64,000 nt of DNA from IMG/VR virus record IMGVR_UViG_3300046457_000175, positions 32,001 to 96,000 of that record; one strand, written 5' to 3'. Every line of letters starts with the position of its first letter. Position 1 is the stretch's first letter. The position numbers and the translations under genes were made by a program. The DNA is from a virus. Positions 280-54,496 of this stretch are shown here, piece after piece. The notes under the pieces are model-generated. The model ran no database searches. It was not told where the DNA came from and saw only the letters and a list, made by a program, of their open reading frames with translations.

Positions 280-3707
<3,428 letters not shown>

Positions 3708-3710
3708 TCG

Positions 3711-3995
3711 TCACTCGTCTTTCGGGAGGAAAACACAGTACGGCCAGTCAGCCGGGATCGGGTCGTACTCGGACGTCGGCCGTGAAGGCGGCGCCCAATC
3801 ATTGATGCGGTAGATGTTGCCGGTCGCGGTCCGGAAGACGTTCGGCTCGATCTCCTCCACCACCTTCGCGGTGTAGATGAACCAGCCGTCGCTATACTGG
3901 CTCTTGATGTCGCCCCAGATCGTGCCGCGCAGCGAGAAGCCGCCGCCCGGAATGGAGACGCGCTGGGCCTTCTTCAGCGTGCCGCGGACCTGCAT
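3711..3995 (-). CDS. hypothetical phage protein
   Basis: 94-aa ORF packed against nrdJ and upstream ORF. Confidence 0.7.
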   Translation of the reverse strand: MQVRGTLKKAQRVSIPGGGFSLRGTIWGDIKSQYSDGWFIYTAKVVEEIEPNVFRTATGNIYRINDWAPPSRPTSEYDPIPADWPYCVFLPKDE

Positions 3996-4337: not shown

Positions 4338-4372
4338 GGTCCTATCTTCTCCGGTTTGCATTCAAGCAAGCT

Positions 4373-5091: not shown

Positions 5092-5343
5092 TTAGCCCTT
5101 CTTCAGTGCGGCTATCCGAGGATGGACTTTCGCCCCGTTCCGCCTGGCGACCTTCACCGCTGTCTCAAACGGCTCGGGCAGGGGGAGCGGAACTCTGCCG
5201 AGGCAGCCGTCCGGCGTCGGCTGATCTTGCTCCCAGCCTTTCTCGCGAGCACAGCCGTAGCTTTTCGGGCAGCCCTCGGGAGGGCAGTGCTTGCTGCCGT
5301 CCCTGTGGCAGAGCCATATGGTCCAATCATCTGCCTCAGCCAT
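5092..5343 (-). CDS. hypothetical Cys-rich protein
   Basis: 83-aa ORF, overlaps the stop of the upstream gene. Confidence 0.55.
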   Translation of the reverse strand: MAEADDWTIWLCHRDGSKHCPPEGCPKSYGCAREKGWEQDQPTPDGCLGRVPLPLPEPFETAVKVARRNGAKVHPRIAALKKG

Positions 5344-5779
5344 CGCGGCGCTCCGGATCGATATAGAGCCGGTACTCCAGACCTTCGCGGTGCCACTGGC
5401 CGTCGCACACGGCGATGACCTTGTTGGCAGCGAGGAAATCCTCGTCGGTCATATCGTCGTATTCGTACAGCTCGCGCAGCTCCTTGGCCGGAACCAGGTC
5501 GCTGGTCCATTCCAGCTCAGCGTTACCGACCTTGATCCTGGCCATGTCGGTCAGGCTGTTCTCGACCTGCGAGATCGCGTGACGCAAGTCTGCAATCTCC
5601 GACAGGAGCAGAGCCGCATTGTTCGCGCCACCATTGGGATGGGCACTCAGGAAGCCGAAGCGGTCGACCTTACCCTTGGCTCTCAGGACTCTGCCGATGA
5701 CCTCGACAACCTCGCCGGCTTCTTCACCGAGGCGGTCGACCTTGCCTTGAGGCGTGGTGGGTAGGAGGTGCGGGTTCAA
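5336..5779 (-). CDS. MazG-like nucleoside triphosphate pyrophosphohydrolase
   Basis: LGEEAGEVVE...SEIADL acidic motif pair typical of the all-alpha NTP-PPase fold. Confidence 0.65.
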   Translation of the reverse strand: MNPHLLPTTPQGKVDRLGEEAGEVVEVIGRVLRAKGKVDRFGFLSAHPNGGANNAALLLSEIADLRHAISQVENSLTDMARIKVGNAELEWTSDLVPAKELRELYEYDDMTDEDFLAANKVIAVCDGQWHREGLEYRLYIDPERRDG

Positions 5780-5997
5780 CGGACTTTCCTTTCCTTAATG
5801 CGAACAGAGATCGGCCAGCGAACATTGATCCGCCATTCGTGGCGCCAGCAGCGCCAATCGCCGAGCGGCTTGCACTCACCCCAATTCCACGTCACCCCCC
5901 AATCCCGATGGCTGATGTCTGGACCGATGATCACGACCCAGCCATCTCCATAGAACAGGTGGTGTGTGGCTCGATGCCATAGCAATTTCCAGTTCAT
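5776..5997 (-). CDS. hypothetical Trp-rich protein
   Basis: 4-nt overlaps at both ends. Confidence 0.6.
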   Translation of the reverse strand: MNWKLLWHRATHHLFYGDGWVVIIGPDISHRDWGVTWNWGECKPLGDWRCWRHEWRINVRWPISVRIKERKVR

Positions 5998-14024: not shown

Positions 14025-14681
14025 TCAAAACGGAATGTCGTCATCCATGTCGTTGTTGCGACCGCCGCCGTTGTTGGCGTTGCCGCCGCGGCTGCTGCCA
14101 CGGTCATTGCCACCACGGTCATCGCGATCGTCACGGCCACGGTTGCCACCACGGCTTGCGCCACGATCATCGCCGCCGCGGTCGTCGTCGCGAGAGTTTC
14201 CACGGCTCGACGAGCTACGGCTTCCGCGGTCATCGTTGCCACCGCGATCGTCACGGTCGCGGCTGTTGCCGCTGCTGCGGGAGCTGCCACGGCTATCGCT
14301 GCCACGGTCGTTCTTGTTGTCGTTGTCGAACGACAGCTTCATCAGCGCATCGATCGGAGCGAAGGCGGGGATGACGATCTCGGTCGAGTAGCGATCGACG
14401 CCGTCCTTGTCTTCCCACTTGCGGGTCTGGATCTTGCCTTCCAGACGGACCAAGTCGCCCTTATGGACGTAGTCCTCGACGAACTTGATCGTGTTCTCGT
14501 TCCAGACGACGATATTGTGCCACTCGGTCTTCTCCTGCTTCTCGCCGGAGCGCTTGTCCTTCCAGGTCTCACTGGTAGCGACGCTGAAGTTCGCGACCTT
14601 GGAACCGTTGGACAGGGATTTCACTTCGGGGTCTTTACCGAGCCGCCCGATCAGCTCAACTTTGTTCAGACTTGATGCCAT
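14025..14681 (-). CDS. ssb: single-stranded DNA-binding protein
   Basis: LNKVELIGRLGKDPE, KTEWHNIV, EGKIQTRKW, C-terminal MDDDIPF. Confidence 0.97.
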   Translation of the reverse strand: MASSLNKVELIGRLGKDPEVKSLSNGSKVANFSVATSETWKDKRSGEKQEKTEWHNIVVWNENTIKFVEDYVHKGDLVRLEGKIQTRKWEDKDGVDRYSTEIVIPAFAPIDALMKLSFDNDNKNDRGSDSRGSSRSSGNSRDRDDRGGNDDRGSRSSSSRGNSRDDDRGGDDRGASRGGNRGRDDRDDRGGNDRGSSRGGNANNGGGRNNDMDDDIPF

Positions 14682-14738
14682 TGGTCTCTCCTTCTGTGTT
14701 TGCATTAGCATTTCGTTTGCATTCAAGCAAGCGAAAAG

Positions 14739-16292
14739 TTACGTGAAAGGCGCAACAAATAGTCCGGTCCGCTCGTCGAAGGACAGGATCGAGATGCCGG
14801 TGTTGCCGGCGAGCCGCTTGAGGCGGACCTTTGCGATGTTGATCTCGCGATCGTTGGGGCTGTCTTCATTGCCGCCGTGAACCAGAATGCCGAGGTCGGC
14901 CTTGTTCGCCCAGTGCGCGGAGTCCGAGATGTTGTAGAGCCCCGGCTTCTGCCCAGCATCCAGCTTCGTCGGGTGAGCCACCACGATGACGCAGACACCA
15001 AACTGCTTCGCGAACCGCTTGAGCATCTTGATCGCCTTTCCAACGTACTCCGTCAGCGACATGTTGGCCGGACGGTTGTGCTCCAGCTCGTTCCAGGGGT
15101 CGACGACCATGCACTTCACGCCATCGCGGAACACCGCGACCATTGCCGTGTCGATCAGGAACTTGACGTCGATCTCAAAGTCTTTGCCTTCATCGTAGTC
15201 GATGAACTGGAAGTATCTCTGGACGAACGCCTCGGCTTTCTTCTTCTCCTCGAACGTCCATGTCTTGCGCTCCTTTTCCAGGAAGGCGGTCATCAGCTCG
15301 TGTGCGAGGAACGGCTTGACGTCCTTCTCACCCGAGAAGATGGCGATCGGCCACTTGTGCTTCTTCGCCAGCAGCACTGCGACCTGGTTGATCAGCGTCG
15401 ACTTGCCGACGTTGGGCGTGCCGGTGCAGACCACGAACTGGCCGGGGTAGAACTTCATCAGGCCGTCCAGCTCCGCGGACAGACCGATCTCGCACATAGC
15501 CGGCACTTCCAGCTCCGGATAGTCGGAGAGGCGGAACAGACCCTTGACCGGCCATGGCTTGGCCGCCTGGATCATATCCGTCACCGCCTTGGCGCCGAGA
15601 TATTGCCTGACCTCGTTGAGATCCTTGGGGGCTCTGAGTTTGTTCCTGTTCTTCTTGTCCGGAACGACCTCGTCCGTGGGGTACTCGACCCAGAAACACT
15701 TGGCCGCACCGAGACGTCTGACCAACTCCTTGGCCAGGCGCTGGCCTGGCTCGTCAGCGTCGGTGCAGATGATGTGGTGCTTGACCTCCATGATCTGGTG
15801 CATCAGCCGGCCCATGAACGCGAACTTGTCGTCGTCCTCGGGGTCGATATCGCTGTCGTCGTCGGGCACATCGATCAGCCGACCCTTGGCGTCGCGGGCT
15901 GGCGGCGCACCATCGGGGACCGAGACGATGGTCTCGTAGCTGCACTCCTTGCCGGCGAGCACGTCGAACTCGCCCTCGACCCAGATCAGCGACTCATCGC
16001 CCTGGCGAAGTGCGTCCATCAGTGCCGGGTGGAATAGCACTTCCGCATTGTACAGCGTCTTGACCGCGTCCTTGCGCTGCATGAAGCGGCGCTGTCCGTC
16101 CTGCGACCACCGGTATTTGGTGTTCACCTCGACGCCATGCTCGAAGTAGGGGAAGCAGAGGATGTTGCCACGCTCGTCAGCTTCGATTGACCCATCGTGC
16201 GAGCGACGCCCGCTGTAGAGCCCCATAGCCGCCGCCGTTTCGACGCTCAGGCCGCGGTCCTCGATCCCCCGTGCGTGCTTCTCGTTTAGCAT
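14739..16292 (-). CDS. TOPRIM primase / SF4 helicase (T7 gp4/Twinkle-like) lacking the N-terminal Zn domain
   Basis: WVEGEFD, DADEPG TOPRIM motifs; TGTPNVGKS Walker A; VVDPWN; VAHPTK. Confidence 0.9.
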   Translation of the reverse strand: MLNEKHARGIEDRGLSVETAAAMGLYSGRRSHDGSIEADERGNILCFPYFEHGVEVNTKYRWSQDGQRRFMQRKDAVKTLYNAEVLFHPALMDALRQGDESLIWVEGEFDVLAGKECSYETIVSVPDGAPPARDAKGRLIDVPDDDSDIDPEDDDKFAFMGRLMHQIMEVKHHIICTDADEPGQRLAKELVRRLGAAKCFWVEYPTDEVVPDKKNRNKLRAPKDLNEVRQYLGAKAVTDMIQAAKPWPVKGLFRLSDYPELEVPAMCEIGLSAELDGLMKFYPGQFVVCTGTPNVGKSTLINQVAVLLAKKHKWPIAIFSGEKDVKPFLAHELMTAFLEKERKTWTFEEKKKAEAFVQRYFQFIDYDEGKDFEIDVKFLIDTAMVAVFRDGVKCMVVDPWNELEHNRPANMSLTEYVGKAIKMLKRFAKQFGVCVIVVAHPTKLDAGQKPGLYNISDSAHWANKADLGILVHGGNEDSPNDREINIAKVRLKRLAGNTGISILSFDERTGLFVAPFT

Positions 16293-16497
16293 TCTCTGAT
16301 CCAACCCATCCACAGTTCTTGCAATTCCAGACGACCCCGCTGACATCGATCTTCACCGATAGGCAGCGGATTTTCTTGTGAGCGCCCTTCCGCTTGTGCG
16401 AACACTGCGGACAGGTCGAATACTGATTTCCGAATTTGATGGACCGCAGCTTGATCCCCTCTTCGGACAGGACCTTCTCGATATCCACACTGGCCAT
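16177..16497 (-). CDS. stand-alone primase Zn-binding domain
   Basis: TCPQCSHKR...CLSVKI...WNCKNCGW; 3' part overlaps the primase start in another frame. Confidence 0.75.
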   Translation of the reverse strand: MASVDIEKVLSEEGIKLRSIKFGNQYSTCPQCSHKRKGAHKKIRCLSVKIDVSGVVWNCKNCGWVGSENAKREARTGDRGPRPERRNGGGYGALQRASLARWVNRS

Positions 16498-16498
16498 G

Positions 16499-17326
16499 TC
16501 AGATCGCCACCTTCATCTTTCCCGGCATGCCTCGGGGCTTGATCGGCGCCTCCTCGGTCTCCCACCTGGCGTTGTTGATCCAGACGCTGGCTGCCGCGAT
16601 GAACTTGACGTTCCTCGGATCAGCCTTCACGTCGGCGTTCATGCGCTCGGCGTAGAAGCCAAGACCTTTCAGGATGTCCTCGAACTCGACCTCGTCGTCG
16701 CGCTCCAGCTTCTCCAGCTTGGTGTAGGCTGCCTTGCGGCTGTCACCCGGCTTCTTCGGATAGAGGGCCCAGAACTGCTTCCGGTAATCATCCGGCCAAG
16801 CCTTCGTCTTGCGGGGCTTGCTGGTTCTAGCTTTCGGTTCAGGTGATGGTTTTAAGTGATGGTTTAAGGTGTCATCCTGGTTGACACCCCTATGTCGCTT
16901 CGGTTGACGCCCGGTGTCGTCCAGGGTCTCACCAGCGTCGTCCTGGTTGCCACCCCTGTCATCCTGGTTGACACCCCCCGTGTCATCCTCGTTGACACCC
17001 TCTTCCTCGGCCGGGACCGGGCCGTCGTAGAGGTTGAGGACGTCCATGTGGATCGTGTACTCGGATGACCGGGTGCTGCCGTCAGGACGGACGCGAGCCT
17101 CGGCGGTGAGGATGCCGATCTCTTCCATCAGCTTGAGGTTCTTGTTCACGCAAGCCCTGCTCAAGCCGGTGATCCGGGCAATGGTGTTCTGGCGCGGATA
17201 GGCGCTGTCCTCGTCGCCGGCAAAATTGGCCAGGATCGTTAGGATGTGCCGCATGGTGGGGGTGACCCGCTTCGGACTGACGTCGACGAAGGACTCGATC
17301 ACCCAGTTGATCGCTCTGATGCTCAT
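16499..17326 (-). CDS. replication initiator with N-terminal winged HTH (lambda O-like)
   Basis: MSIRAINW...LANFA...AYPRQNTIARITGLSR; internal iterons; C-terminal FWALYPKK. Confidence 0.85.
   Translation of the reverse strand: MSIRAINWVIESFVDVSPKRVTPTMRHILTILANFAGDEDSAYPRQNTIARITGLSRACVNKNLKLMEEIGILTAEARVRPDGSTRSSEYTIHMDVLNLYDGPVPAEEEGVNEDDTGGVNQDDRGGNQDDAGETLDDTGRQPKRHRGVNQDDTLNHHLKPSPEPKARTSKPRKTKAWPDDYRKQFWALYPKKPGDSRKAAYTKLEKLERDDEVEFEDILKGLGFYAERMNADVKADPRNVKFIAAASVWINNARWETEEAPIKPRGMPGKMKVAI
16836..16998. repeat. iteron array / probable replication origin inside the initiator gene
   Basis: five copies (3 near-perfect) of GTGTCA-TCCTGGT-TGACAC at 16869, 16914, 16935, 16956, 16980, plus adjacent AACCATCAC repeats on the - strand. 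Confidence 0.8.
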
Positions 17327-18340: not shown

Positions 18341-19054
18341 ATGGCATTGGCAGCGAGTCAAATGAAGAAGCAGACCCCGAAGGAGATCGTGATCGAATGG
18401 ATCGATCACATCCTCGATCGAAAGAAGTGGACTGGAACCGACCTCGCGCGGCACGCCGAGCTGGCTCCGTCAACGATTCTGCGTCTCCTCAACAACCCGA
18501 AGCATCCCTTCATCCCTACAGTCTCTACCCTGCGGAAGATCGCCGATGGCTCGGGTTACCCGATCCCGAAGAAGGTGATGGCCGCGCTCGGAGCTGAGGG
18601 TGAGATGGCGTCGTCCGCTGAGATGGAGCCCGATAACGTTCGTCGCCTCCACGTTCGTACGGCTCGGTCCGCCACGGTCGAGCTGCGCCATGTGTCGTCG
18701 CTGCCGGCCGCTCTGCAGTCCGCGGCGAACCCGCAGCGTGAGGGCTACGTGCCGGCTCCGCCCCAGCTTGAGGGGGACGAGACTGCCTTCGCCTTCCACA
18801 TGCCCGACAACTCGTTCGGCATGTGGTTCAAGACCGGCGGCCTGATGTACGCGACCAAGCGGCGCGATCCTCTGCCTGGCGACATGGTGATGGTCACGGA
18901 CAAGAACGGGAAGACCCGGGTTCGTCTGCTGATGGATATCACAGAGAACGGCCTGAAACTGACGAAGTCGATGCCGGAGAAGGAAGACGAAATCCTGACC
19001 TTTGACCAGGTCGCCGAGATCGCCATCGTCATCGTGACGGTTCGGCAGATATAA
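18341..19054 (+). CDS. XRE-HTH / S24-like domain transcriptional regulator
   Basis: N-terminal HTH (TDLARHAELAPSTILRLL); C-terminal S24-like fold (DNSFG...PGDMVMV...RVRLL). Confidence 0.8.
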   Translation: MALAASQMKKQTPKEIVIEWIDHILDRKKWTGTDLARHAELAPSTILRLLNNPKHPFIPTVSTLRKIADGSGYPIPKKVMAALGAEGEMASSAEMEPDNVRRLHVRTARSATVELRHVSSLPAALQSAANPQREGYVPAPPQLEGDETAFAFHMPDNSFGMWFKTGGLMYATKRRDPLPGDMVMVTDKNGKTRVRLLMDITENGLKLTKSMPEKEDEILTFDQVAEIAIVIVTVRQI

Positions 19055-30567: not shown

Positions 30568-32031
30568 TTAAGCAACCCGGCGGTGGCGAGTGAGGATGAG
30601 TTCGTTGATGTTGGGGTGACCAGGGCGATCGATGTCATCGACGATGAACATGTCTGCACTCTTGCCGCTGATCTTTGAGAGGACGGTCATGTCGTCCGAG
30701 CCGACGTCGAAGCCGGTGAAAGCCTTGCGACGACCGCGAGGCTTCTTCTGGGGCTGGATCTCCGTGAACTCGTTGCCGTCCTCGTCGTAGAGATCGGCGA
30801 CGCTACGATGCATCCGCTTGTCGCCCTTCTGGACCATCTCGCTCTTGGGCCAGTTCCGTCCCGTGAAGATGCAGTGCTCGCCATGCTCTGCGAACCACTC
30901 CTTGGACCACTGCACTTGGCGGTTCTGAGAGCCGTGACCCAGGAGCACCCTGCAATCGCGGTCCCAAAGCTTTCCGCTGCCAGCGCAGGTGAAGGCGTAC
31001 TGGTCGATCGCATGGGTAGACCACAGTTGATCGGCGCCGTGGACGTACCGCATGTTGCTGACCGGATAGGCGGAGCCGATCTTTGGGCAGCGAGCCTGTA
31101 GGACCGAATGGCCGGACGACGAGCTGGTGACGTACTTCGGGCCAGCCTCTGTCGGAGCGGCAGCAGCCGTCACGAAGTGGTCGCCCATGTCGATGCCGAC
31201 GCCGATGTCGTCGAAGTAAGGCATGACGAACTCGTGTTCGTCGTCTTCGGTCGGGATCTTCAGGAGTCGAGCACCGACGAACGTGTCCTGCTTGTTGCCT
31301 GTCCCCTTGCGGAGATCGTCGTAGCCTTCGTTGGCGAGGGCAGACCGCATCGCTTCGACCGCGCCATAGCATCGGCCATGAAGCTTCTTCTCCGGCCAGC
31401 AGAGCGCGCGTGACTGGATGCGGCCCTTGCTGTTCTTGGTGTAGGCGACTGCCAGGTCGCCAGCGCCGTAAGGAGCGACCGGCCATTCCGGGAGATCGTG
31501 GAAGTCGTGAGCGCCATCCATGCACGACGACGGGCCGTGCTTGTAGACGTAGACGATCTCCTCCGGCGTCGTCGCATAGAAGACCTCGCCGCTCGGATCG
31601 ATGGCAGCGATCAGCTCGCGACGGCGCTTGTCGACCATCTTCCTGTCGTCGGTCTCGTAGAACCGGCTGATGTAGCGGCCCGGAGTGAGGGCGGTCAGCT
31701 TCTGGATGATCCCGTGATCCTCGCTCTCGATGAACGCGATCTTGCTGATGTCGGGAGCCCACAGATGGGCGAAGTGATCTTTGATCGGTTCCAGGTCCCA
31801 CTTCTTTGGCAGCAGTGTCAGCTCGCCCGAATCCAGGCGCTTCTGCATCGCAGCTCGCCAGTCGCCTGCCTGAGCAATGCGTCGGCACTGGACCTTGAGG
31901 CCGCTCGAAGCAGCTACTGTTTTGGAAGCCTTTGCTGCATCGGCTCCCTTGTCGAACGTTCCGCAGTCCGGCAGAGGCGTCTCAACGAGATTGCCGTCTG
32001 CGTCGCGGTCCAACCTGACCAGGTAGAACAT
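30568..32031 (-). CDS. hypothetical protein (peptidase-associated)
   Basis: 487 aa; GPSSCMDG, RALCW, PYFDD; GGAG RBS after a box. Confidence 0.75.
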   Translation of the reverse strand: MFYLVRLDRDADGNLVETPLPDCGTFDKGADAAKASKTVAASSGLKVQCRRIAQAGDWRAAMQKRLDSGELTLLPKKWDLEPIKDHFAHLWAPDISKIAFIESEDHGIIQKLTALTPGRYISRFYETDDRKMVDKRRRELIAAIDPSGEVFYATTPEEIVYVYKHGPSSCMDGAHDFHDLPEWPVAPYGAGDLAVAYTKNSKGRIQSRALCWPEKKLHGRCYGAVEAMRSALANEGYDDLRKGTGNKQDTFVGARLLKIPTEDDEHEFVMPYFDDIGVGIDMGDHFVTAAAAPTEAGPKYVTSSSSGHSVLQARCPKIGSAYPVSNMRYVHGADQLWSTHAIDQYAFTCAGSGKLWDRDCRVLLGHGSQNRQVQWSKEWFAEHGEHCIFTGRNWPKSEMVQKGDKRMHRSVADLYDEDGNEFTEIQPQKKPRGRRKAFTGFDVGSDDMTVLSKISGKSADMFIVDDIDRPGHPNINELILTRHRRVA

Positions 32032-50174: not shown

Positions 50175-51067
50175 TTGGTCGGTTCCTTTTCAGTTTTCCG
50201 GAGGCCCGGAGGTTTTTGGAGATTTGAACACGGCTCTCCCGTGCTCTGGGAACACTTGGTTCCAGAGACTTCACGAGTCAGAAGACTCGCGCGTGAGAAG
50301 AGAGCAGTTCCAAAACCTCCGTTTGCATTTCCAGTACCCACAACATACTCAATACAAACATCGTTGGGTGAGAAATAAATTCATCAATGATTTCAATAAC
50401 TTACATACATCGAAAATCCGAAATCAAAATCGAGGCCTTGGAAATCGAGCACGAAAAACGCTGTGTTTTCAATGGCTTAGCAGGAATGCAAACGAGTCTG
50501 TCTTCGGCCTTCCCGAAATGATGCAGGAAAATCCGAAGTCTCCTAGCGAATCACCTTGTCAAGCCCTTGTTTCACTCTCTGTTCTCATCCTTTAGTCTAA
50601 GACAATCATTCATCAAGCGGAGAATTTTCTTCCTTTGTTTCCAAAAAAAGAGAATAATTTTTTATTGCATAGGCCCCCCATGTCGGCTGACCCCTCAAAA
50701 CTTCGAACCGCTAAAAGGGCCTTTTCCCAACGAGGGCAGGGACATGGGGCGAAACCCCTCGGCATCAGGGAGGCACAGGGGCTGTGTGCGTTAAAACGGG
50801 CGGCCCGTGCATCGGGAGCCTGGACTGGCAGGCCGCTCCTGGGGCTTCCCTGGCCGTTTGCATCGGGGAGGGCTGTCCGCAAAACGTATACAAACTCGGG
50901 ACAGGCCTGGCGTAAGAGATCCGGCGCAGATTTCTTACAGGGGGTGGCCTCGGAAATCGGGCGGCCCTGTTTTGGGGCCCCACCTGCGCGCCGCATAATG
51001 CAAAAGGGTAATTGCAGCGAGCGCTCCGCGCTGGTAGTGCAAACGCCAACCGTGCCGGGAGGGACAA

Positions 51068-53560: not shown

Positions 53561-53833
53561 TCACCCGTCGCGGAGGTTCATCGCTTTGTAGGCCTTGAGC
53601 AGCTGGTCCGGAGGCGTCCTGGCTTTCAGGGCTTCCCAGGCCGTCTTGAAGTCGACCTTCGCCTGGTCGAGGCTGCCGGCCGTGCCGATGGGGAGACCTC
53701 CGGTGAGGTGGACGATGACGTTCCAGATCCAGATCCCGGGCGTGCGCTCGCTAGCGTATCTGATCCGGCCGACCATCTGCTTGTCGTCGAGCACGGAATA
53801 GTCGCGGCGTCCGATCGGTCGCAGGCTGAGCAC
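53561..53833 (-). CDS. Bradyrhizobium-type small hypothetical protein
   Basis: GRIRYASERTPGIWIWNV...AKVDFKTAW, a pattern I associate with Bradyrhizobiaceae hypotheticals (recall, not searched). Confidence 0.65.
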   Translation of the reverse strand: MLSLRPIGRRDYSVLDDKQMVGRIRYASERTPGIWIWNVIVHLTGGLPIGTAGSLDQAKVDFKTAWEALKARTPPDQLLKAYKAMNLRDG

Positions 53834-53850
53834 GAAATCGGCCTCGTGAG

Positions 53851-53974
53851 GGGGGTGTCAACCAGGATGACAGGGGGGGTGTAATCCTGGTTGACAGGGG
53901 TGTCATCCGAGTTGACAGGGGTGTCATCCGAGTTGACACCTTAAACCACCACTATAACCACCACTTGAACCACC
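53851..53974. repeat. second iteron array homologous to the one in the initiator gene
   Basis: four GTGTCA-N7-TGACA(G/C) units at 53855, 53879, 53900, 53921 followed by CTTAAACCACCACTATAACCACCACTTGAACC. Confidence 0.85.
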
Positions 53975-54370
53975 AACTCTTAGACTCTCGTCCCTTTTCG
54001 GGCCGAGGCGCTGGCTTTTGGCTTCGGCCGCAGGTTCCGGTCAGGAACTCCAGCCGGCAAGTTTCCACAGTTCGGGCGGAAAAGGTGCCCAGGTGTTGAA
54101 ACCGGGAACCCATTTGCATTTTTGCAGGGAACAACCAGAGAGGGGTTGACAGAACGGGGGTACCTACTGTAGGACTTGCTGTAGCGTTAGCATTCGTGCA
54201 AACGTAACCAAGCCCCCAGGATGCGGCCCGGACAATCAGCCGGGACATTGGGCGGTGCCCGGACCCACTAACCCCATGCTGCGACCCCCGCCTCAGGCGG
54301 CGGCGCCCGGCCAGGCGATAGGAGTTCGGCGTGTCCAGGGGCTTGCTTGAATGCAAACGGAGGAACGCGC

Positions 54371-54496
54371 GTGAGCCATGAGCTGATCCAGTATCTCGCC
54401 TATGTGGCCGCGATCGTCCTGACCCCTGCAGTCGGCTTTGCCGTCCTCGGCCTGTTCTGGTGCGTCCGATCCCTGAAGGAGATCGTCTGGCCATGA
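54371..54496 (+). CDS. single-TM microprotein
   Basis: GGAGGA RBS after the box at 54343; hydrophobic core. Confidence 0.6.
   Translation: MSHELIQYLAYVAAIVLTPAVGFAVLGLFWCVRSLKEIVWP

Follow-up and report, generated by a model that had tools for sequence, protein, structure and literature searches.

A second, non-coding copy of a putative lambda/SPP1-type origin module in a 119-kb temperate phage of soil bacteria

The genome considered here (record IMGVR_UViG_3300046457_000175, 119,289 bp) is that of a 119-kb temperate phage of soil bacteria, and it contains two arrays of the same palindromic unit. One lies inside the gene for the replication initiator and the other, inverted relative to the first, lies 37 kb away in DNA that encodes no protein. 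The question is why a phage would have a second set of sites so far from the initiator gene. The window referred to below is the whole stretch of DNA analyzed, i.e., 64,000 nt that correspond to record positions 32,001 to 96,000.

The features around the initiator gene, in window coordinates, are:

16499..17326, - strand: replication initiator gene, 275 aa (PHROG 270, phrog_391, Pfam HTH_36; codon score +91, GC3 0.81)
16870..16998, - strand: array A, six in-phase 17-bp palindromic units (pattern scan; Tandem Repeats Finder)
16818..16868, - strand: tract A, a putative unwinding element within the coding sequence, four 12-13-bp AACC-type repeats (repeat layout, low stability)
14739..16346, - strand: primase/helicase gene, directly downstream of the initiator (Pfam Toprim and DnaB_C; phrog_239, E 1e-69)
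14025..14726, - strand: single-strand DNA-binding protein (SSB) gene (phrog_44, E 4e-46)
18341..19054, + strand: Cro/CI-type HTH regulator, divergent from the replication module (Pfam HTH_26; phrog_1373 transcriptional regulator)

The initiator product matches the PHROG 270 replication initiation protein (E 4e-28) and the O-like phrog_391 (E 2e-14), and its gene adjoins those for the primase/helicase and the SSB, which makes the three one replication module. HTH_36 is its only Pfam match; Phage_rep_O gives none, even at E values up to 10. A structure model consists of a winged-helix N-domain, a linker (residues 95-173) at pLDDT below 50 and a helical C-domain (low confidence, mean pLDDT 55), and a fold search with this model returned only generic winged-helix regulators, at E 0.047 or worse. 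A scan of the initiator region for promoters and terminators detected no promoter and one terminator-like site, which is no more than in shuffled sequences.

The units of array A are spaced 24, 21, 21, 22 and 23 bp apart, and most of them are preceded by a G run. Units 1, 2 and 6 are canonical and units 3 to 5 are degenerate, with two to three core mismatches each. An earlier note on this DNA had described five units in the gene; these are present, but a sixth, degenerate unit (unit 5, 16893-16909), which occupies a 45-bp gap, had been missed. Array A covers the codons of about residues 110-153, and together with tract A it encodes the disordered linker of the initiator; it is therefore placed between the winged-helix domain and the C-domain, as in an intragenic origin of the lambda type. 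Tract A supplies the low-stability flank of such an origin and is among the least stable 0.25-0.3% of 40-60-bp windows genome-wide. The 22-23-bp spacings and the 12-13-bp repeats are out of phase with the codons, and so, these are repeats of the DNA and not of the protein.

The second array and its neighbors are:

53851..53939, + strand: array B, four 17-bp palindromic units, each with a G run before it, non-coding (pattern scan; Tandem Repeats Finder; codon scores; conservation)
53940..53985, + strand: tract B, a putative unwinding element, three to four 12-13-bp AACC-type repeats (Tandem Repeats Finder, stability, conservation)
53561..53833, - strand: first leftward-arm gene (codon score +27, GC3 0.88; GAGG ribosome site before a GTG start)
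54371..54496, + strand: first small rightward-arm gene (codon score +11.5, GC3 0.80; TTGC-N6-GCAA box and ribosome site upstream)

Pattern scans and Tandem Repeats Finder bear out the earlier description of this array at 53855-53974 with 24/21/21 spacing. Its four units (53855-53939) are better formed than those of array A, unit 2 having one core mismatch. Tract B is detected as a repeat of period 12 with 2.7 copies (53944-53975), and is among the least stable 0.24-0.45% of 40-60-bp windows in the genome; two or fewer G in 45 nt occur at only two other places genome-wide. The open reading frames that overlap array B have negative codon scores and a GC3 of 0.50-0.65, versus 0.78-0.88 in the neighboring genes, and so, we consider the array to be non-coding.

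Array B sits in a 540-bp non-coding gap at a strand switch, between a leftward and a rightward arm of genes that diverge from it, and about 20 bp separate unit 1 from the start of the first leftward gene. On a crude codon-based map, the leftward arm runs from 17 kb to 86 kb of the genome and includes genes for a ribonucleotide reductase, a helicase, a RIIA-like protein, the initiator, the primase/helicase and the SSB. The rightward arm runs from 86 kb through the end of the record to 12 kb and leads to tail-like genes and the large terminase. Codon scores and this map agree with the claim that the second array is inverted, non-coding and next to a genome-scale strand switch. It had also been proposed that the array is linked to packaging or to the genome termini, for which we found no support: the large terminase gene is about 16 kb to the right and array B is internal to the record. 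Scans for sigma-70 promoters and terminators at array B detected nothing, no Rfam families were found around it, and the hairpins to its right are no more stable than those of shuffled sequences.

The relationship between the two arrays is specific. Allowing at most one mismatch, GTGTCA-N7-TGACA has 13 matches in the window versus 0.97 +/- 1.22 in shuffled sequences, all of them within 16869-16998 or 53855-53939, and the whole 119,289-bp genome has no exact copy of the 17-bp palindromic unit, TGTCA-N7-TGACA, outside the two arrays. Tandem Repeats Finder reports periods of 24 and 21 at both. Each array passes directly into three or four G-poor 12-13-bp AACC-type repeats in the same order, the duplex instability of both tracts is about 3 SD above the genome mean, and the two modules have near-identical stretches of 21-37 nt in common. 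The imperfect dyad symmetry of each unit implies that a dimer binds it. As for the AACC repeats, they were compared by eye with the consensus sites of DnaA, CtrA and IHF and fit none of them.

The closest phage, Bradyrhizobium phage BDU-MI-1 (121 kb, about 70% identity), has both modules; the intergenic one is separated by about 38 kb of the circle from the one in the orthologous initiator gene. Both are also present, 33 kb apart, in a record of 127.6 kb that is classed as a provirus. The earlier note had asked whether relatives keep both arrays, and in these two array B is neither absent nor decayed. The inverted arrangement, a distance of 33-38 kb between the modules and an orientation of both tracts away from the short arc are common to the three genomes. 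The divergence node is the site of array B both in the window and in G001; in BDU-MI-1, three leftward genes separate it from the strand switch, and so, it is not always exactly at the node.

The number of units varies as well. Source genome 2524023228 has an intragenic array that consists of a single unit plus tract, and a separate 74.9-kb contig has a five-unit intergenic array. A complete 63.5-kb phage with terminal repeats (L149, IMGVR_UViG_3300046517_000593) has only an intragenic array, with four perfect units of the same palindrome and AACC-type repeats inside the gene. Its initiator (5153-5965), which is followed by a primase/helicase gene, is only 27% identical to the window initiator, and this would imply that the recognition sequence is conserved far beyond the 120-kb clade. 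This distant phage also supports the view that array A alone can be sufficient. Judging from the genomes compared, the intragenic module is the widespread state and the intergenic second copy characterizes the 120-kb clade. Scans of viral contigs with junction and two-unit DNA patterns yielded mostly chance matches and seven contigs with true arrays, and a scan of representative bacterial genomes gave only a distant match in Prevotella. No study of BDU-MI-1 replication was found in the papers searched.

Some of this variation displays patterns of its own. The bases that join the last unit to the tract (TTA, TTG or ATA) match between arrays A and B within genomes and differ between genomes, a co-variation that is suggestive only, as it ranks second of 24 permutations; overall, each array groups with those of its own kind, intragenic or intergenic. 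Another initiator, from L012 (IMGVR_UViG_3300046507_000393, 3001-3837), has the N-domain and the array of the window protein, whereas its C-terminal domain is clearly another one; this suggests that domains have been exchanged at the linker that coincides with the origin.

Both modules are maintained for their DNA sequence. In a four-genome alignment, the columns of array B and its tract (53862-53976) have an identity of 0.54-0.81 versus 0.2-0.45 in the flanks, and the tract alone has 0.63-0.81. Array B is thus a conservation island in diverged intergenic DNA and is under selection at the DNA level. For the initiator gene, we used the frequency of an identical codon where two sequences have the same amino acid:

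Last unit of array A: 0.91
AACC tract A: 0.81
N-terminal folded domain of the initiator: 0.65
C-terminal folded domain of the initiator: 0.64

The last unit and the tract combined have a synonymous codon identity of 0.85 versus about 0.65, and on this measure the suppressed synonymous change in array A is likewise DNA-level selection.

The layout resembles those of two well-studied phages. In SPP1, the closest precedent and one that the earlier note does not name, oriL is inside gene 38 and oriR is intergenic; both consist of repeats plus an AT-rich unwinding element and both are bound by gp38 (PMC6316719). For SPP1 itself, it has been proposed that oriR serves chiefly as a barrier with bound initiator and not as an early origin, with gp38-bound oriR blocking forks and so switching synthesis to concatemers (PMC3485210). 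The window phage has the same dual arrangement, i.e., one array inside the initiator gene and another in non-coding DNA kilobases away, each with repeats and an easily melted tract, and a helicase gene after the initiator (PMC6316719, PMC3485210). There are several differences. The window initiator has no detectable pairwise similarity to gp38 (BLASTP E = 11; best PHROGs 270 and 428, respectively), and the two proteins have one weak PHROG in common, in the C-terminal part. The SPP1 repeats are direct, whereas the units described here are palindromic, and the window phage lacks a separate loader gene between the initiator and the helicase, the latter being fused to a primase. Unlike SPP1, the phage is also a temperate, alphaproteobacterial one of 119 kb with array B at a node of divergent transcription. 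Since the initiator has no pairwise similarity to gp38, the common layout is analogous or at most very remotely related.

The lambda origin occupies the middle of gene O, where an AT-rich tract accompanies iterons that are imperfect inverted repeats and have G tracts (PMC7466680); two iterons plus the AT-rich tract are quoted there as the minimum for unwinding. Array A is likewise placed centrally in its gene, in the part that encodes the linker from the DNA-binding N-domain to the C-domain. As in lambda (PMC7466680), its units are inverted repeats of imperfect symmetry that carry G tracts, follow one another at about two helical turns and adjoin a low-stability tract, and a Cro/CI-type regulator is divergent nearby. 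Stx phages, which have six-iteron origins, group with the lambda ori for this comparison. In contrast, lambda has a single origin, the window initiator falls below Pfam Phage_rep_O and matches HTH_36 alone, and the melting tract consists of sequence-specific 12-13-mers in a 60% GC genome and not of plain AT-rich DNA. Taken together, the window phage is a clean, well-supported new example of the known SPP1 design.

On balance, we predict that array B provides the phage with a second origin of the lambda/SPP1 type, complete in all its elements, that the winged-helix initiator binds it as well as array A, and that it probably fires at the divergence node. Of the three possibilities raised in the earlier note, a second origin is the best supported: array B has the full anatomy of an origin in the same order and orientation as array A, it is under selection and it is at the divergent node. 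Dimers of the winged-helix initiator would occupy the phased palindromic sites and form an O-some-like complex, the duplex would open at the adjacent G-poor 12-13-bp repeat tract, and the phage primase/helicase would be loaded there. Array A, inside the initiator gene, would be the ancestral, lambda-style copy of the module. Because array B is at the divergence node, forks that leave it in both directions would be co-directional with transcription of both arms. We infer, then, that the initiator binds both arrays, that the tracts melt and that array B fires. The ability to fire is considered probable because the melting tract is kept under selection, because the units are better formed than those of array A and because array B is the sole multi-unit array in one lineage, given the two-iteron minimum in lambda. 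Array B is possibly even the main origin in the clade.

The SPP1 parallel leads to a different reading, which we consider rather unlikely: array B would be an oriR-like bound site that does not fire early, and initiator held tightly there would stall forks from array A and so bring about the switch from theta to concatemer-forming replication. The layout matches that of SPP1, where oriR has been proposed to have this role (PMC3485210, PMC6316719), and both the orientation and the 33-38-kb spacing of the arrays are conserved. Cumulative GC skew has a local minimum about 4 kb from array A and its maximum at array B, and by the usual convention the maximum marks a terminus and not an origin. But the skew follows gene orientation and is confounded by it, and so, we rejected it as an origin marker; it does not choose between a firing origin and a barrier. 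Furthermore, binding sites alone suffice for a barrier, yet array B retains a melting tract under selection, and in one lineage array A has a single unit, too few for an origin under the two-iteron rule of lambda (PMC7466680). If array B serves chiefly as a transcriptional operator that lets the initiator control the operons diverging to the left and right, its place in the 540-bp non-coding node would be accounted for, and with the first leftward gene so close to unit 1, leftward transcription must start in or beyond the array. An operator has no need of a conserved 12-13-mer tract or of four to five phased units, no sigma-70-type promoter was detected at array B, and three genes separate the array from the node in BDU-MI-1; we judge this explanation to be very unlikely.

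Copy control, also raised in the earlier note, is only slightly less improbable than an operator. Remote sets of an initiator's own sites, such as P1 incA and F incC, serve to control low-copy plasmids, and array B is a remote set of the sites predicted for its own initiator; it could titrate the initiator or handcuff to array A and so hold a plasmid-like prophage at low copy number. Pure control arrays of the P1 incA kind are not known to have a melting or unwinding tract, whereas array B keeps a conserved tract of 12-13-mers and thus is more than a set of sites. Control by handcuffing of one iteron array to another is well established (PMC5397158, PMC6090056), but the units of array B are palindromes for dimers, as in lambda, and not direct iterons of the monomer type. 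Unlike the P1 and F plasmids, the genome has a tyrosine integrase gene (a 426-aa open frame at G000:C1:23830-24285 of the whole-genome record, outside the window), and searches of the genome with ParB_N and AAA_31 profiles found neither ParA nor ParB, and so, the partition genes of an autonomous replicon are missing. This gene content points to an integrating temperate lifestyle, and the relatives are classed as integrated proviruses. The proposal of a plasmid-like prophage is therefore poorly supported. Lastly, the near-identical stretches of 21-37 nt common to the two modules might be what is expected if array B were a duplicated piece of the initiator gene without function or an error of assembly. 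Three independent assemblies with about 70% overall identity contain the same pair of arrays, which excludes the artefact that the earlier note had allowed for, and array B is more conserved than its flanks, with unit number and spacing varying while the design is kept. The explanation as a whole is hardly credible.

Another reading is that arrays A and B work as a pair and not as two independent origins. Initiator complexes would bridge the conserved, inverted 33-38-kb interval, or array B would trap forks from array A, and this geometry would set the time at which one mode of replication gives way to another or prophage silence to lytic replication; the initiator would then make sequence-specific single-strand contacts with the AACC-type 12-13-mers. 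We hold this to be doubtful. Two separated arrays of one initiator's sites are known from satellite phage P4 (ori and crr) and from plasmid R6K (gamma with the alpha and beta origins), where they act in cis by looping. The second site of P4 is an enhancer a few kb away and not a full copy of the origin, and looping between arrays A and B is without support in the window phage. Should the paired reading be true, the AACC 12-13-mers would be an origin-opening code that is common down to the 27%-identical initiator of the 63-kb phage.

Whichever role array B has, these genomes provide the BDU-MI-1-like Bradyrhizobium phages, which include a cultured member, with a map of origins that can be tested. 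They also show that the design known from SPP1, an intragenic origin accompanied by a distant copy in non-coding DNA, is found again where the initiator lacks detectable pairwise similarity to gp38; this points to repeated independent evolution and hence to a general function of the second site. Nature has supplied a series for asking which copy fires and what the other one does: six units in array A and four in array B (the window phage), one and five (2524023228) and array A only (the 63.5-kb phage).

A few other observations on this DNA deserve mention. In a 98.6%-identical relative (L031, IMGVR_UViG_3300046557_000419), the G runs beside unit 1 of array B differ in length (7 versus 6 and 10 versus 7; window 53849-53879), which alters the spacing between units 1 and 2 and is either real homopolymer variation or sequencing error. 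The least stable DNA of the whole genome is a 440-bp AT-rich non-coding island at 50175-50612, 3.3 kb to the left of array B. In both arms, the coding strand has more C than G throughout the genome, contrary to what is usual. The TTGC-N6-GCAA box is present in at least 14 copies, oriented with the downstream gene and often 2 nt ahead of the ribosome site. Copies in the window are at 4356, 5062, 14717, 23934, 32043, 32130, 35461, 38724, 43258, 47136 and 48390, with further ones at 54111-54126, 54187-54205 and 54342-54356. To the right of array B, two of the boxes are oriented leftward with no gene ahead of the array, and one rightward copy heads the first rightward gene.
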